In this document: positions 1 to 4,821 of the stretch, piece by piece | Numbering within the stretch: position 1 is the stretch's first letter | Layout of the letters: each line of letters opens with the position of its first letter | IMG/VR virus record: IMGVR_UViG_2531839474_000008 | Length of the DNA stretch: 4,821 bases | Reading direction: 5' to 3' (one strand) | Origin: a virus | Taxonomy: Duplodnaviria > Heunggongvirae > Uroviricota > Caudoviricetes | Made by a program: the position numbers and the translations under genes | The notes under the pieces: model-generated | What the model was told of the DNA's origin: nothing | Database searches by the model: none | Seen by the model: only the letters and a program-made list of their open reading frames with translations

Positions 1-1829
1 CTGAGATCCAGCTGCCAGCGGGAAATACTGATGCGCAGCGCCGCCAGCGCATAAACGAAGCAGTCGAGTGCCTCATTGCGTCGCTTTTTGCTGTCCCACA
101 GTATTTTTTTCCTGCCATCCACCCATTTTTCGACCTGCTCTTCAGCAGTCAGCTGCTGCGCTTCGGTCAGATCAAAAATATCCGGGTTATTCGGGAAGTG
201 AACGGCACCGGGAAGCGGTTCATCCCCTTCCGGCGTCAGTGTGAAGCGGTTATAAATCTGCTCTTTCGCGGTATCCGTACCGATTTCGGTAAGGTAAACC
301 CCGTTTTTGTTTCGCTTACGTGGCATGCTGGCCACCGGCTTTCCGTAGACGGATGCCCCTTTAATGAGGATCACCCGGAACAGCCCATGTTTTTTCGAGC
401 GTTCATACACAATGGTCGGGTCAATCCCGCCAGTATCCCAGCAGATACGGGATACCGACATTTCTGCACCATTCCGGCGGGTATAGGTTTTATTGATGGC
501 CTCATCCACACGCAGCAGCGTCTGTTCATCATCGTGGCGACCCATAATAATCTGCCGGTCAATCAGCCAGCTTTCCTCACCCGGCCCCCATCCCCATACA
601 CGCATTTCGTAGCGCTCCAGCTGGGAGTCGATACCGGCGGTCAGGTAAGCCACACGATCAGGAACGGGCGCTGAATAATACTCTTTCCGCTCTGCCATCA
701 CTTCAGCATCCGGACGTTCGCCAATTTTCGCCTCCCACGTCTCACCGAGCGTGGTGTTCACAAAGGTTTTACGTTTTCCCGTATCCCCTTTCGTCTTCAT
801 CCAGTCTTTGACAATCTGCACCCAGGTGGTGAACGGGCTGTACGCCGTCCAGATGTGAAAGGTCACACTGTCAGGCGGCTCAATCTCTTCACCGGATGAC
901 GAAAACCAGAGAATGCCATCACGGGTCCAGATCCCGGTCTTTTCGCAGATATAACGGGCATCAGTAAAGTCCAGCTCCTGCTGACGGATGACGCAGGCAT
1001 TATGCTCACAGAGATAAAACACGCTGGAGGGGTCATCCGGCGTCCATTTGAGGCCAAACGGCGTCTCTTTATCGCCAAATTTAAGGTACTGCTCCTCCCC
1101 GCAGTGCGGGCAGGCAACATGAAAACGCATAAAATGCGGGGATTCACTGGCTGCACGCTCAATCTGACAGGTGCCTCTCACTTTGGGCGTGGAGCCACGG
1201 ATGGACTTTGGCCAGACCGAGCCTTCAATACGCTTATCGCCCAGGAACGTCGGAGAGCCTTCCTGTTCAATATCCTCATCAAAGGCAGCAAGTTCATCAT
1301 AACCCGCCACATCCACCGACTTTTCACGGTAGTTTTTTGCCGCTTTACCGCCCAGGCACCAGAAGCCACGACCATTGGTGAAACGCTTCATGGTGAGCGT
1401 GTTATCCCGGTGCTTTTTGCCATACCACGGAGCCAGCGCCAGCAGCGACGGAATATCACGGATGGTTGGCTCAACGTGAGTTTTCATGAAGTTCTCGGCA
1501 TCACCATCCGTCGGCAACCAGATAAGTGTGTTGCGTTGCTTATGCTCTATGAAGTAGGCATAAACACCCAGCAGCATTTTGGAATAACCGACACGGGCAG
1601 ACTTCACCACATTCACCTCACGGATGTAGTCGCTGCCCATCGCATTCATGATGGCCCGCTGAAAGGGCAGTGTTTCCCAGCGCCCTTCCTGGTATGCGGA
1701 TTCTTTCGGGAGATAGTAATTAGCATCCGCCCATTCAACGGCAGTCTGTGGCTCCGGCCTGAACAGTGAGCGAAGCCCGGCGCGGACAAAATGCCGCAGC
1801 CTGTTAACCTGACTGTTCGATATATTCAC
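1..1829 (-). CDS. A: Terminase large subunit gpA, partial; about 609 codons present, C-terminal end lies beyond the window
   Basis: Hand translation of the minus strand from the GTG at 1829..1827 gives MNISNSQVNRLRHFVRAGLRSLFRPEPQTAVEWADANYYLPKESAYQEGRWETLPFQRAIMNAMGSDYIREVNVVKSARVGYSK... and stays open to position 1, ending ...EALDCFVYALAALRISISRWQLDLS. It is collinear with lambda gpA as recalled, with a few substitutions, and includes the P-loop-like KSARVGYSK. The start overlaps the Nu1 3' end by 26 nt as in lambda. It is absent from the ORF track only because there is no stop inside the window. Confidence 0.95.
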   Translation of the reverse strand, partial: MNISNSQVNRLRHFVRAGLRSLFRPEPQTAVEWADANYYLPKESAYQEGRWETLPFQRAIMNAMGSDYIREVNVVKSARVGYSKMLLGVYAYFIEHKQRNTLIWLPTDGDAENFMKTHVEPTIRDIPSLLALAPWYGKKHRDNTLTMKRFTNGRGFWCLGGKAAKNYREKSVDVAGYDELAAFDEDIEQEGSPTFLGDKRIEGSVWPKSIRGSTPKVRGTCQIERAASESPHFMRFHVACPHCGEEQYLKFGDKETPFGLKWTPDDPSSVFYLCEHNACVIRQQELDFTDARYICEKTGIWTRDGILWFSSSGEEIEPPDSVTFHIWTAYSPFTTWVQIVKDWMKTKGDTGKRKTFVNTTLGETWEAKIGERPDAEVMAERKEYYSAPVPDRVAYLTAGIDSQLERYEMRVWGWGPGEESWLIDRQIIMGRHDDEQTLLRVDEAINKTYTRRNGAEMSVSRICWDTGGIDPTIVYERSKKHGLFRVILIKGASVYGKPVASMPRKRNKNGVYLTEIGTDTAKEQIYNRFTLTPEGDEPLPGAVHFPNNPDIFDLTEAQQLTAEEQVEKWVDGRKKILWDSKKRRNEALDCFVYALAALRISISRWQLDL

Positions 1830-2349
1830 TCAGCAACCCCGGTATCAGTTCATCCAGCGCGGCTGCTTTGTTCATGGCTTTGATGATATCCCGTTTCAGG
1901 AAATCAACATGTCGGTTTTCCAGTTCCGGAAAACGCCGCTGCACCGACAGGGGGATCCCGTCGAGAATACTGGCAATTTCACCTGCGATCCGCGACAGCA
2001 CGAAAGTACAGAATGCGGTTTCCACCACTTCAGCGGAGTCTCTGGCATTTTTCAGCTCCTGTGCGTCGGCCTGCGCACGCGTAAGTCGATGGCGTTCGTA
2101 CTCAATAGTCCCTGGCTGGAGATCTGTCTCGCTGGCCTGCCGCAGTTCTTCAACCTCCCGGCGCAGCTTTTCGTTCTCAATTTCAGCATCCCTTTCGGCA
2201 TACCATTTTATGACGGCGGCAGAGTCATAAAGCACCTCATTACCCTTCCCACCGCCTCGCAGAACGGGCATTCCCTGCTCCTGCCAGTTCTGAATGGTAC
2301 GGATACTCGCGCCGAAAATGTCAGCCAGCTGCTTTTTGTTGACTTCCAT
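1804..2349 (-). CDS. nu1: Terminase small subunit gpNu1 (cos-binding, winged helix-turn-helix N-terminus)
   Basis: The 181-aa ORF MEVNKKQLADIFGASIRTIQNWQEQGMPVLRGGGKGNEVLYDSAAVIKWYAERDAEIENEKL... ends ...LSEYIEQSG, essentially the lambda Nu1 sequence as recalled. ATG start at 2349..2347 and TAA stop at 1806..1804. It sits immediately downstream of cosB. Confidence 0.95.
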   Translation of the reverse strand: MEVNKKQLADIFGASIRTIQNWQEQGMPVLRGGGKGNEVLYDSAAVIKWYAERDAEIENEKLRREVEELRQASETDLQPGTIEYERHRLTRAQADAQELKNARDSAEVVETAFCTFVLSRIAGEIASILDGIPLSVQRRFPELENRHVDFLKRDIIKAMNKAAALDELIPGLLSEYIEQSG

Positions 2350-2373
2350 TGTTCATTCCACGGACAAAAACAG

Positions 2374-2488
2374 AGAAAGGAAACGACAGAGGCCAAAAAG
2401 CCCGTTTTCAGCACCTGTCGTTTCCTTTCTTTTCAGGGGGTGTTTTAAATAAAAACATTAAGTTACGAAGAAGAAGAACGGAAACGCC
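2374..2488. repeat. cosB: cosB gpNu1-binding elements: R1 (2374..2389) and R2 (2415..2430) as a perfect 16-bp inverted repeat, R3 at about 2473..2488, and an AT-rich putative IHF bend region between R3 and R2
   Basis: The plus strand at 2374..2389 is agaaaggaaacgacag and its exact reverse complement ctgtcgtttcctttct sits at 2415..2430. A third copy of the CGTTTCC core, gaagaacggaaacgcc, lies at 2473..2488. This arrangement matches lambda R1/R2/R3. The IHF site is not pinned to exact bases. Confidence 0.75.
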
Positions 2489-2526
2489 TTAAACCGGAAA
2501 ATTTTCATAAATAGCGAAAACCCGCG

Positions 2527-2538
2527 AGGTCGCCGCCC
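2527..2538 (-). other. cosN: cosN 12-nt cohesive-end sequence (GGGCGGCGACCT on the minus strand), flanked by the terminase nick sites
   Basis: The plus strand at 2527..2538 is aggtcgccgccc, the reverse complement of the lambda cohesive end GGGCGGCGACCT. It is flanked on the right by cgtaacctgtcgg, the reverse complement of the lambda right-end terminus. Confidence 0.8.
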
Positions 2539-2737
2539 CGTAACCTGTCGGATCGCCGGAAAGGACCCGCAAAATGATAATAATTATCATCTACATGTCA
2601 CAACGTGCATCTACGCCATCAAACCACGTCAAATAATCAATTATGACGCAGGTATCGTATTAATTGATCTGCGTCAACTTAACGTAAAAACAACTTCAGA
2701 CAATACAAATCAGCGACACTGAATACGGGGCAACCTC

Positions 2738-2932
2738 ATGTCAACGAAGAACAGAACCCGCAGAACAACAACCCGCAACATCCGCTTTCCTAACCAAATG
2801 ATTGAACAAATTAACATCGCTCTTGAGCAAAAAGGGTCCGGGAATTTCTCAGCCTGGGTCATTGAAGCCTGCCGTCGGAGACTAACGTCAGAAAAGAGAG
2901 CATATACATCAATCCAAAGTGATGATGAATAA
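2738..2932 (+). CDS. Small basic hypothetical protein, 64 aa, with an Arc/MetJ/CopG-like ribbon-helix-helix pattern; possibly YlcI/YnfO (DUF3950) family
   Basis: ATG at 2738 with a GGGG Shine-Dalgarno-like run about 9 nt upstream (acgGGGcaacctcATG) and a TAA stop. The protein MSTKNRTRRTTTRNIRFPNQMIEQINIALEQKGSGNFSAWVIEACRRRLTSEKRAYTSIQSDDE has a basic N-terminal arm, a beta-strand-like NIRF followed by P, a helix (NQMIEQINIALEQKG), a GSG turn and a second helix (NFSAWVIEACRRRL), parallel to the Arc FNLRWP...G.S... pattern. It uses three AGA codons and is more AT-rich than the terminase genes, as expected for a moron. The family name is tentative and from memory. Confidence 0.7.
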   Translation: MSTKNRTRRTTTRNIRFPNQMIEQINIALEQKGSGNFSAWVIEACRRRLTSEKRAYTSIQSDDE

Positions 2933-3199
2933 ACATCCCGGTTTCTTCCACCATCGCACCGGAAAAGCGACTATGAGGGTAACCCTGCGTCTGTCAGCAC
3001 AGTAAAACCCGGTGTGCATCGTTTTTGATTATTCCCGCACACTCACGCAGAAGGAATTCCCCGTCGGGCTACGGCCATGGTTAATGCGGGAATACGGCGA
3101 CGATACAGCGCAGCTAAAAGGGTAATGGACAGAAAGAGCGGTTTATTTCATTCCACAGGATTCTGAGTGCCCCCCTCCTCCAATAGGCTGAGCATCCAC

Positions 3200-3291
3200 C
3201 TATATAGTTTTAATTTTCATCAATCCATTTAACTATCGTTTAATTGTTGTCACATAGGATTCTGCCGTTTTTAACAATGCAGGATAATAAG
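3200..3291 (+). promoter_or_regulatory. Putative bor promoter and ribosome-binding region
   Basis: AT-rich sequence directly upstream of bor. A strong Shine-Dalgarno AGGA sits 7-8 nt before the ATG (gcAGGAtaataagATG). There is a candidate -35-like TTGTCA at 3247..3252 with weak -10-like ttaaca/taacaa 17-19 nt downstream. Lambda bor is known to be expressed in lysogens from its own promoter, but the exact hexamers here are not convincing. Confidence 0.3.
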
Positions 3292-3585
3292 ATGAAAAAA
3301 ATGTTGTTTTCTGCCGCTCTGGCAATGCTTATTACAGGATGTGCTCAACAGACGTTTACTGTTGGAAACAAACCGACAGCAGTAACACCAAAGGAAACCA
3401 TCACCCATCACTTCTTCGTTTCGGGAATTGGACAGGAGAAAACTGTTGATGCAGCCAAAATTTGTGGCGGCGCAGAAAATGTTGTTAAAACAGAAACCCA
3501 GCAAACATTCGTAAATGGATTGCTCGGTTTTATTACTTTAGGCATTTATACTCCGCTGGAAGCGCGTGTGTATTGCTCACAATAA
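3292..3585 (+). CDS. bor: Bor outer-membrane lipoprotein (serum-resistance lysogenic-conversion protein), 97 aa
   Basis: MKKMLFSAALAMLITGCAQQTFTVGNKPTAVTPKETITHHFFVSGIGQEKTVDAAKICGGAENVVKTETQQTFVNGLLGFITLGIYTPLEARVYCSQ, with a lipoprotein signal peptide and LITGC lipobox. It is near-identical to lambda Bor as recalled, and lies on the strand opposite the late operon, directly after Rz, as in lambda. The ATG at 3292 with its AGGA Shine-Dalgarno is preferred over the TTG at 3244 used by the ORF track. Confidence 0.93.
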   Translation: MKKMLFSAALAMLITGCAQQTFTVGNKPTAVTPKETITHHFFVSGIGQEKTVDAAKICGGAENVVKTETQQTFVNGLLGFITLGIYTPLEARVYCSQ

Positions 3586-3595
3586 TTGCATGAGT

Positions 3596-3613
3596 TGCCC
3601 ATCGATATGGGCA
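3596..3613. terminator. Stem-loop between convergent bor and Rz (7-bp stem tgcccat/atgggca, 4-nt loop cgat); weak bidirectional terminator candidate
   Basis: A perfect 7-bp inverted repeat at 3596..3602 and 3607..3613, lying 10 nt after the bor stop and 3 nt after the Rz stop. There is no clear U-tract on either strand, so intrinsic terminator activity is uncertain. Confidence 0.25.
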
Positions 3614-3616
3614 GCT

Positions 3617-4078
3617 CTATCTGCACTGCTCATTAATATACTTCTGGGTTCCTTCCAGTTGTTTTTGCATAGTGATCAGCCTCTCTCTGAGGGTGAAATA
3701 ATCCCGTTCAGCGGTGTCTGCCAGTCGGGGGGAGGCTGCATTATCCACGCCGGAGGCGGTGGTGGCTTCACGCACTGACTGACAGACTGCTTTGATGTGC
3801 AACCGACGACGACCAGCGGCAACATCATCACGCAGAGCATCATTTTCAGCTTTCGCATCAGCTAACTCCTTCGTGTATTTTGCATCGAGCGCAGCAACAT
3901 CACGCTGACGCATCTGCATGTCAGTAATTGCCGCGTTCGCCAGCTTCAGTTCTCTGGCATTTTTGTCGCGCTGGGCTTTGTAGGTAATGGCGTTATCACG
4001 GTAATGATTAACAGCCCATGACAGGCAGACGATGATGCAGATAACCAGAGCGGAGATAATCGCGGTTACTCTGTTCAT
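3617..4078 (-). CDS. Rz: Rz inner-membrane spanin (i-spanin), 153 aa
   Basis: [153 protein letters not shown] has an N-terminal signal-anchor transmembrane segment and a coiled-coil periplasmic domain. It is near-identical to lambda Rz as recalled. The ATG at 4078..4076 overlaps the endolysin TGA stop (ATGA) and follows a GGGG Shine-Dalgarno-like run; the ORF-track start at 4090 is an in-frame GTG four codons upstream. Confidence 0.95.
3676..3858 (-). CDS. Rz1: Rz1 outer-membrane lipoprotein spanin (o-spanin), 60 aa, embedded in the +1 frame of Rz
   Basis: [60 protein letters not shown] has a lipoprotein signal with a VVGC lipobox and a proline-rich mature region. It matches lambda Rz1 as recalled and lies wholly inside the Rz coding sequence in a different frame. 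Confidence 0.9.
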
Positions 4079-4578
4079 TGCTGACCCCACAAACAGATTT
4101 CACGCTCAATCTCACGACGAGTCATGAGACCTTTCCATTGCTTACCGCCAGCATATGTCCAGCGACGTAGCTGATCACATGCGCCTTTGATATCGCCCTG
4201 GTTTATTTTGCGAAGAAGCGTCGATGTTCTGAAATTGCCAGCACCCACGTTGTAAACGAATGAGTAAAGAGCGCCGCGCATTGTTTCCGGTATATCGACT
4301 TTGATGTACGGGTTAATTTGTCTGGCGACCGTGGCAAGGTCTTTATTCAGGAGGGCTTTGCATTCTGCTTTGGTATACGTTTTACCGAGCATGATGTCTT
4401 TTCCTGTATGCCCGTGACATACAGTCCATACACCAACAATATCTTTGTATGGTATGTAGCTGACACCTTCCAGACCATCGTTACCACTCGGTCCAGTGAT
4501 TAACACAGATGCTATAGCAATAGCCCCGCCACTTATCGCCGCTATTACGCTATTTCGTAGTGCCGGTGACATTGCCAT
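4075..4578 (-). CDS. R: SAR (signal-arrest-release) endolysin, T4-lysozyme-like glycoside hydrolase (GH24 type), 167 aa
   Basis: [59 protein letters not shown]... has an N-terminal Gly/Ala/Ser-rich weakly hydrophobic segment (residues about 9-30) typical of SAR domains. The catalytic triad spacing E37-x8-D46-x5-T52 matches T4 lysozyme (E11/D20/T26) and phage 21 R. A GAGGA Shine-Dalgarno lies 8 nt upstream of the first ATG. The start overlaps the holin 3' end by 29 nt. It resembles the 21-like and DLP12 RrrD lysozymes as recalled. Confidence 0.93.
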
Positions 4579-4753
4579 TCAATCTGTCCTCGCGCTCTTT
4601 GCGCTTGTAGTACCAGTTGATGCCAAATGTGCCGACAGTACAAAGAATACCAATAATGACAGCCCAGTCATTCAGGGAGAGAATGCCACCCATCGCAGTC
4701 AGTCCTCCGAAGCTGTAACTGAACCATTCTCTGATTTTGTCCATACGGTACAT
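4550..4753 (-). CDS. S: Class II holin with two transmembrane domains, pinholin-like, carrying a dual-start motif (M1 and M4)
   Basis: The 67-aa protein [67 protein letters not shown] has two predicted transmembrane segments (a Gly/Ala/Ser-rich first segment, [17 protein letters not shown], and a second, [20 protein letters not shown]) and a charged C-terminus. It sits directly upstream of, and overlaps, the endolysin gene. The M-Y-R-M-D-K N-terminus resembles the phage 21 S dual start M-K-S-M-D-K. The protein itself is not one I recognise by sequence. Confidence 0.85.
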
Positions 4754-4821
4754 GCTCTACCCATTCATTGAGGGGATTTGCTCTATGTGGATTTGCCCCT
4801 ATATTTCCAGACACCTGTTAT

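Follow-up and report, generated by a model that had tools for sequence, protein, structure and literature searches.

The closest described relatives of the locus examined here are the lysis regions of lambdoid phages. In phage 21, lysis is governed by a five-gene module encoding an antipinholin, a pinholin, a SAR lysozyme, an i-spanin, and an o-spanin (PMC12315714). Lambda carries a class I holin of 107 aa (PF05106) and an unrelated endolysin, the transglycosylase R, and the stop codon of R overlaps the Rz start by 4 nt, just as the endolysin and Rz genes overlap in the DNA described below. In the DLP12 prophage of K-12, the genes follow the order essD-rrrD-rzpD-rzoD-borD-ybcV-ybcW-ylcI-nohD. 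Mosaics among lambdoid phages have been reported to show abrupt borders that lack a diverged “shoulder,” as well as homeologous exchange in the flanks (Martinsohn et al., PMC2327257), and a paper on co-transfer in these phages (PMC9836094) contains nothing specific on endolysin or spanin linkage.

The stretch of DNA analyzed here, hereafter the window, is 4,821 nt long and represents the end of the late region of a lambdoid prophage. From high to low coordinates it contains the end of an IS2 element, a holin gene, an endolysin gene, Rz/Rz1, bor, a ylcI-like gene, cos, Nu1, and A. The late genes are all encoded on the minus strand, and bor and the ylcI-like gene are encoded on the plus strand (Table 1). 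The initial annotation had flagged the overlap between the stop codon of the endolysin gene and the start codon of Rz as a mosaic join between a 21-like holin and endolysin and a lambda-like arm consisting of Rz/Rz1, bor, cos, and terminase. The point of divergence from lambda is real and falls exactly where the Rz gene begins, yet it is ordinary and already known; the endolysin/Rz boundary is a module boundary that is both old and well known, and its interpretation as a new recombination event is rejected.

Table 1. Features and boundaries located in the 4,821-nt window, in order of increasing coordinate
Feature	Position	Strand	Remarks
Terminase large subunit A, N-terminal 609 codons, GTG start	1-1829	-	Runs off window
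Nu1, terminase small subunit, lambda specificity type	1804-2349	-	PF07471, 336 bits
Lambda-type cos	2350-2538	-	cosN at 2527-2538; cosB with inverted R sites at 2374-2430 (inverted repeat I1)
ylcI-like DUF3950 gene	2738-2932	+	PF13132; 62/64 aa to lambda homologue
Boundary of phage-21-like block (3004-4488) and lambda-like block (1-2949)	2950-3004		Between bor and ylcI
bor/iss lipoprotein gene, 21/Iss allele	3292-3585	+	PF06291; convergent with Rz
Rz (i-spanin), 153 aa	3617-4078	-	PF03245, 183 bits
Rz1 (o-spanin lipoprotein), 60 aa	3676-3858	-	PF06085, 72 bits; +1 frame of Rz
Endolysin/Rz junction	4075-4090	-	ATGA overlap at 4078-4075; seven-genome alignment
SAR endolysin, 167 aa, R21/RrrD type, GH24 lysozyme	4075-4578	-	PF00959, 155 bits
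Crossover interval, Emek-type/21-type alleles	4418-4488	-	All compared sequences identical within the interval
Class II holin, 67 aa, dual start M1-Y-R-M4	4550-4753	-	PF16080, 75.1 bits
IS2 right terminal 34 nt	4788-4821	-	Remaining IS beyond window end

At the flagged junction, the endolysin TGA (4077-4075) and the Rz ATG (4078-4076) are read from a shared minus-strand ATGA. An ORF-finder start for Rz at an upstream GTG (4090) was set aside, the ATG at 4078 being preferred by homology to the 153-aa Rz of both lambda and phage 21. In BLASTN comparisons, lambda (L001, PV340536) matched the window at 94.9% over 3238-4078 and at 97.8% over 1-2949, and no lambda match was found above 4078. The switch relative to lambda that had been proposed at the ATGA is therefore exactly placed, with the lambda match beginning at 4078, and when the comparison was divided into bins of 50 and 60 nt, lambda passed from no alignment to 49-50/50 identical positions precisely at the junction. 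An alignment of seven genomes over the 90 nt surrounding the junction gave the same picture: lambda is unrelated upstream of the ATGA and almost identical downstream of it, while the window, phage 21, and PhiR34_1 agree base for base. The lambda mismatches nearest the junction fall at 4074 and 4067 and include Rz codon 2, which is AGC in lambda and AAC in the window; as initially described, Rz thus begins with MNRVT here and in phage 21 versus MSRVT in lambda. These two bases are the variable positions nearest the junction, and both are of the 21 type rather than the lambda type.

What phage 21 does at the same point decides the matter. Had a lineage-specific recombination event fused a 21-like holin and endolysin to a lambda-derived arm of Rz/Rz1, bor, cos, and terminase at the ATGA, the similarity to lambda that starts at 4078 would be accounted for, along with the lack of lambda counterparts for the genes upstream and the presence farther on of Nu1, A, and cos sequences that are lambda-type and clearly not 21-type. 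However, the joint pattern of such a fusion was not found at the endolysin/Rz boundary, for lambda starts at 4078 and phage 21 does not stop there. Phage 21 (OL657228) is identical to the window over 3946-4488, a span that crosses the junction, and the two align as one contiguous match of 97.1% over 3004-4573, which takes in Rz, Rz1, bor, and the 287 nt upstream of bor. Since the bases at 4074 and 4067, the Bor protein, and the bor upstream region are all 21-type, and the real change from 21-type to lambda-type DNA lies at 2950-3004, a local fusion at the ATGA is very improbable, and the join as first placed does not stand. The junction is thus an intact inheritance from a 21-type arrangement that is widespread, and it is at the Rz ATG that lambda and 21 begin to differ.

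The genes immediately downstream of the junction were compared individually with their lambda and 21 counterparts. The window Rz is identical to the lambda protein at 152/153 residues and to the phage 21 protein at 150/153. At the DNA level it matches each of these phages at 459/462 positions and PhiR34_1 at 462/462, with differences from lambda at 4074, 4067, and 3854 and from phage 21 at 3945, 3930, and 3917; the phage 21 and lambda Rz genes differ from one another by 6 bases. Because three Rz bases depart from lambda and three others from phage 21, a derivation from lambda rather than from 21 is not assignable, and the Rz sequences constitute one shared allele family. A transmembrane domain (TMD) occupies Rz residues 1-27, and Rz1, which bears a lipobox-like VVGC and matches the phage 21 protein at 60/60 residues and the lambda protein at 59/60, lies wholly within Rz in the +1 frame, as in a two-component embedded spanin.

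The adjoining bor gene is less ambiguous. Bor matches phage 21 at 96/97 residues as opposed to 89/97 for lambda, and it is identical to RefSeq WP_000738423.1, which is named Iss. The 5′ third of the gene is 99% identical to phage 21 DNA versus 85.7% for lambda, and for the 287 nt upstream of bor the values are 95.5% and 77.6%, respectively. From these comparisons, bor is the 21/Iss allele and not the lambda allele. It was also considered whether the deposited phage 21 sequence might carry a laboratory patch of lambda DNA from Rz to bor; this is unlikely, given that phage 21 has non-lambda DNA in the 5′ third of bor and in the region upstream of it, and that the Rz genes of the two phages differ at the 6 bases mentioned above.

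Beyond bor, the 21-like block, which extends from about 4488 down to 3004, gives way to lambda-like, clearly non-21 DNA. The phage 21 match ends at 3004, the long lambda match ends at 2949, and PhiR34_1 is continuous through the interval. This switch is common to PhiR34_1-type phages and many prophages. Lambda differs here in that some 1.1 kb of other DNA separates bor from ylcI, and phage 21 has other genes downstream of bor together with its own type of cos and terminase. The ylcI-like gene takes its name from the annotation of the homologue in K-12 DLP12. The cos and terminase sequences are in turn of lambda specificity by cosN, by the R sites of cosB, and by Nu1 type: cosN is an exact copy of the lambda 12-mer, GGGCGGCGACCT; cosB is 96.8% identical to lambda as compared to 65.1% for phage 21; Nu1 matches lambda at 179/181 residues (98.9%) but the phage 21 small subunit at only 94/181 (51.9%); and A matches lambda at 604/609 residues (99.2%), its DNA being 98.1% identical to that of lambda as against 69.4% for phage 21. 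The near-identity to lambda asserted in the initial annotation thus holds for Nu1, A, and cosN, and for Rz and Rz1 as well (99.4% DNA identity), but it fails for Bor.

The window also proved to have a close relative along almost its entire length. PhiR34_1 aligns with positions 1-4573 in one piece at a uniform 98.3%, an outcome that had been named beforehand as contrary to the mosaic reading, and it is 100% identical over 3523-4488. The gene order from endolysin to terminase A is the same in PhiR34_1, Turner, mEp332, PhiR68_2, and E. coli prophages annotated rrrD-rzpD-iss-nohD; all of these differ from the window in having an S21-type holin and a 21-type endolysin N-terminus and in lacking the upstream IS2. 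Coverage of 80% or more of the window was also reached by nine further isolated phages, and 1,027 of the 5,426 complete E. coli genomes attain this level for the whole window. A 400-nt junction probe was contiguous in 3,511 of these 5,426 genomes, or about two thirds, and an equivalent probe for lambda’s own R/Rz junction was contiguous in 1,542, making lambda the minority junction type. The lysis region of phage 434 is of the same kind, at 97.2% identity, and DLP12 shares the endolysin/Rz junction type and the gene order, with identities of 93% over 3238-4573 and 98% over 1522-2949. DLP12 differs in its S21-type essD holin, its lambda-like borD allele, its retention of ybcV and ybcW, the GTG start of rzpD, and its truncated terminase region.

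In E. coli genomes, the places matching the junction region have a median number of 2 and a maximum of 12, and it is conceivable in principle that collapsed repeats led to the misjoining of reads from two co-resident prophages. Yet the junction is base-identical in the independently sequenced phages 21 and PhiR34_1 and is matched at 100% in complete E. coli genomes, leaving an assembly artefact with next to no probability.

A different question is why so many phages part company at the same base. In a spread sample of phage hits, matches beginning exactly at 4078 were found for lambda, HK630, DN1, HK620, HK97, HK544, HK542, mEp043, and mEpX2. Salmonella phage Emek displays the reverse pattern, being 96.6% identical from 4786 down to 4072 and diverging within 6 nt of the junction; past 4072 it has a 31-codon ORF (orf30) followed by a P22-type Rz, and only the heptanucleotide ATGAGCA is common with the others at this node. 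Because many phages start at 4078 and Emek ends no more than 6 nt away, chance does not account for the agreement with the gene boundary. Not every relative breaks there, as Salmonella phage 101962B_sal5 and a prophage of E. coli strain IGC_RcoliRes_1.1 cross the node at 93-94% identity and lose similarity at 3831, inside Rz.

The common 7-nt ATGAGCA could also mean that exchange takes place at a short conserved linker. Carried further, this idea would make the endolysin/Rz boundary a recombination hotspot, at which an ATGA(G/A)CA linker, comprising the stop/start overlap and the initial codons of Rz, repeatedly and independently swaps endolysin modules among lambdoid and P22-like phages by homologous or microhomology-mediated exchange, in place of random joints sorted by selection. 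The divergence points of at least three upstream or downstream partners (lambda R, the R21-type R, and Emek orf30) fall within these 7 nt, many phages begin their matches exactly at 4078, and the mechanisms discussed for lambdoid phages include exchange at short conserved flanking sequences (PMC2327257). On the other hand, 7 nt is far below the lengths at which homologous recombination is efficient, random joints surviving only where both genes and their translational coupling remain intact would be expected to give the same pattern, and most of the phages with a breakpoint at 4078 may stem from one or two ancient events. A hotspot is accordingly rated as rather unlikely, albeit less so than a local fusion.

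The form of the border and the sequences around it were also considered. The lambda-side border is abrupt and without a diverged shoulder, which, in the framework of PMC2327257, points to an illegitimate or short-linker origin, in contrast to the homologous or homeologous look of the exchanges within conserved blocks. The 3′ end of the endolysin gene contains the ribosome-binding site of Rz, and the phage 21 record annotates an i-spanin ribosome-binding site just before the ATG; with the site located in the last endolysin codons, each endolysin allele supplies the ribosome-binding site of Rz. A search of the window against Rfam recovered no RNA family, a scan for repeats recovered only the cosB inverted repeat, and a scan for promoters and terminators recovered none at the junction, so that no hidden RNA or repeat element is present there. 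Over the whole window, promoter-like and terminator-like sequences were in slight excess only (5 versus a shuffled expectation of 3.7, and 6 versus 2.7, respectively).

Upstream of the junction, the endolysin is a true R21 orthologue, in keeping with its initial description as a 21-like SAR lysozyme. It possesses the lysozyme domain, a weakly hydrophobic, G/A/S-rich N-terminal segment at about residues 6-33, and the Glu-Asp-Thr catalytic triad (E37, D46, and T52), features of R21-type SAR endolysins. All 151 of its residues after position 16 are identical to PDB 3hde (E = 4.7e-108), and overall identity is 159/165 to phage 21 R and 163/167 to the lys product of Emek. No lysis protein of the window received an above-cutoff name from NCBIfam.

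It is inside this gene, the first 29 nt of which overlap the holin gene, that the junction specific to the window lies. Emek is 99% identical to the window over 4579-4786, 100% over 4489-4578, and 93.8% over 4079-4417. Phage 21 shows the opposite trend, at 77.6% over 4489-4578 and 100% over 4079-4417, and phage 21 and PhiR34_1 together range from 75 to 78% in the former interval and are 100% identical in the latter. These values place an endolysin-internal crossover at 4418-4488, with Emek-type sequence at 4489-4786 and 21-type sequence from 4417 down. Emek thus shares with the window the leader upstream of the holin, the holin, and the first 90 nt of the endolysin at 99-100% identity, and differs in its endolysin body, in the orf30 that follows it, in its P22-type Rz (59.7% aa identity), and in its packaging genes. 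Phage 21, for its part, shares the endolysin from codon 17, Rz, Rz1, bor, and approximately 290 nt beyond at 95-100%, as well as the ATGA junction, the gene order, and the Rz1-in-Rz overlap, and it differs in the first ~16 endolysin residues and in its holin. A combination of this holin, R, and Rz at above 96.5% identity was absent from the 5,426 complete E. coli genomes, and in the best genome, STEC719, the holin-R-Rz-iss block is joined to a terminase of the HNH/P27 type. The hybrid endolysin, with its Emek-type SAR N-terminus and 21-type catalytic body, is therefore, together with an HP1-family holin, a recombinant not seen above that threshold in this set of genomes. Scans of species-representative genomes for exact copies of the IS2/holin-leader junction and of the 101-nt recombinant segment of R gave no hits.

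The holin itself had been called 21-like on the strength of its 67 aa and two TMDs, and this description survives only in part. The class II, dual-start layout is present: a G/S/A-rich, weakly hydrophobic segment at about residues 11-27 precedes a strong TMD at about 29-48, a profile resembling S21 in a simple hydropathy calculation, and the protein ends in a basic tail, KRKEREDR. This is a likeness of layout and not of homology. Against PF04971 (Phage_holin_2_1, the S21 pinholin family, to which the holin of phage 21 belongs), the window holin scored 19.5 bits, below the cutoff of 26, as compared to 121-122 bits for S21 and K-12 EssD, and a BLASTP comparison with phage 21 S (S21) gave E = 0.27. 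Judging from its profile match, the holin falls outside the S21 pinholin family and within the HP1-type class II family PF16080, and the phrase “21-like arrangement” can be accepted as an analogy, though it does not describe family membership. Its amino acid sequence is 100% identical to the holin of Emek, a Salmonella P22-like phage, and to those of ST104, SE1, PS119, and E. coli prophages with WP_000286100.1; its DNA is 96-99% identical to that of ST104, SE1, PS119, and others. A pinholin function, which would entail small heptameric holes and the exit of TMD1 from the membrane, is suggested by its pairing with a SAR endolysin and its S21-like hydropathy.

A second window-specific junction lies at the upstream end of the lysis genes, where the right end of an inserted IS2 abuts the holin leader at 4787/4788, leaving 34 nt before the holin ATG; phage sequence of the Emek type is found again from 4786. 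The window includes no more than the end of the element, which carries the terminal inverted repeat of IS2, a member of the IS3 family; the 34 nt match the right end of K-12 IS2A at 33/34 positions and an IS copy in E. coli CV839-06 at 34/34. It is conceivable that IS2 in this position uncouples the lysis genes from the late promoter, and the cassette may consequently be silenced.

Taken together, the observations are very probably best explained by a population-level module boundary at the ATGA of 4075-4078, which was inherited intact in its phage 21 version and whose flanks were later reshuffled. Downstream of the ATGA, lambda, 21, 434, DLP12, and thousands of E. coli prophages have an Rz-Rz1-bor block in nearly identical form, and upstream of it, alternative and unrelated endolysins (the lambda transglycosylase R or an R21-type SAR lysozyme) are attached at the same base. 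The arrangement could have originated when illegitimate or microhomology-mediated recombination replaced the endolysin gene in the distant past, and selection would presumably have kept a joint that left both genes whole and preserved the stop/start overlap. The conserved Rz-bor block and the endolysin body may subsequently have served as substrates for homologous or homeologous recombination that reshuffled the flanking modules. Two such events can be seen in the window, one being the crossover at 4418-4488 that brought in the Emek-type holin and SAR N-terminus, and the other the switch at 2950-3004 to a lambda-type cos and terminase. As predicted from family membership, lysis would proceed through triggering of the dual-start holin, release of the SAR endolysin from the membrane and its activation, and disruption of the outer membrane by Rz/Rz1.

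Beyond correct annotation, the significance of these findings is small. Their useful products are a module map of the window, the placement of the holin outside the S21 family, and the assignment of bor to the Iss/21 allele, together with the positions of the junctions peculiar to the window sequence, at 4418-4488 and at the IS2 insertion, and the placement of the 21/lambda switch. More generally, a “mosaic join” that is defined against one reference, in this case lambda, can mistake an old, population-wide boundary for a local event.

The lysis cassette is itself composite, with its crossover falling within the endolysin gene (R). The holin and R codons 1–30 are of the type found in Emek, a Salmonella P22-like phage, and the remainder of R is of the phage-21 type. 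Among 5,426 complete E. coli genomes, none carried the resulting combination of holin, R and Rz at more than 96.5% identity. At the endolysin|Rz node, the only sequence common to Emek and other phages is ATGAGCA. Emek also possesses a 31-codon ORF, orf30, sitting exactly at this node (3209–3304 of the Emek sequence, corresponding to about window position 4072), and no match to it was found in Pfam.

Features of the window
Feature	Position	Description
Inverted repeat, 26 nt	2374–2430	cosB, between cosN and Nu1; 85% complementary
Boundary of phage-21-like and lambda-like blocks	2950–3004	
bor, 21/Iss allele	3292–3585	protein identical to RefSeq WP_000738423.1
Crossover within endolysin gene	4418–4488	Emek-type allele versus phage-21-type allele
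IS2 right terminal 34 nt	4788–4821	closes the window; 33/34 to K-12 IS2A

Upstream of the cassette, IS2 is inserted 34 nt 5′ of the holin start codon. This insertion lies in the late-transcript leader and may separate the lysis genes from Q/pR′.

The bor product, named “increased serum survival lipoprotein Iss” in RefSeq, differs from lambda Bor, with 89 of 97 residues identical; in the DNA, most of the divergence from lambda lies in the 5′ third of the gene and the region upstream of it. Where the phage-21-like block meets the lambda-like one, the 55 nt of the boundary are matched by PhiR34_1-type genomes only; lambda and the cryptic prophage DLP12 possess approximately 1.1 kb of other DNA at the site, including ybcV/ybcW-like ORFs. 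Within the lambda-like block, the cosB inverted repeat probably corresponds to R sites, which bind Nu1 and lie in opposite orientations in lambda cosB; it is also overlapped by a hairpin resembling a terminator.

The same holin-R-Rz-iss block occurs in E. coli STEC719 (4501–6110 of that sequence, with 97.0% identity to window 3177–4786), but there its neighbours are a terminase of the P27 family and an HNH endonuclease rather than the lambda cos, Nu1 and A of the window, and the region downstream of bor is therefore a further exchange node.
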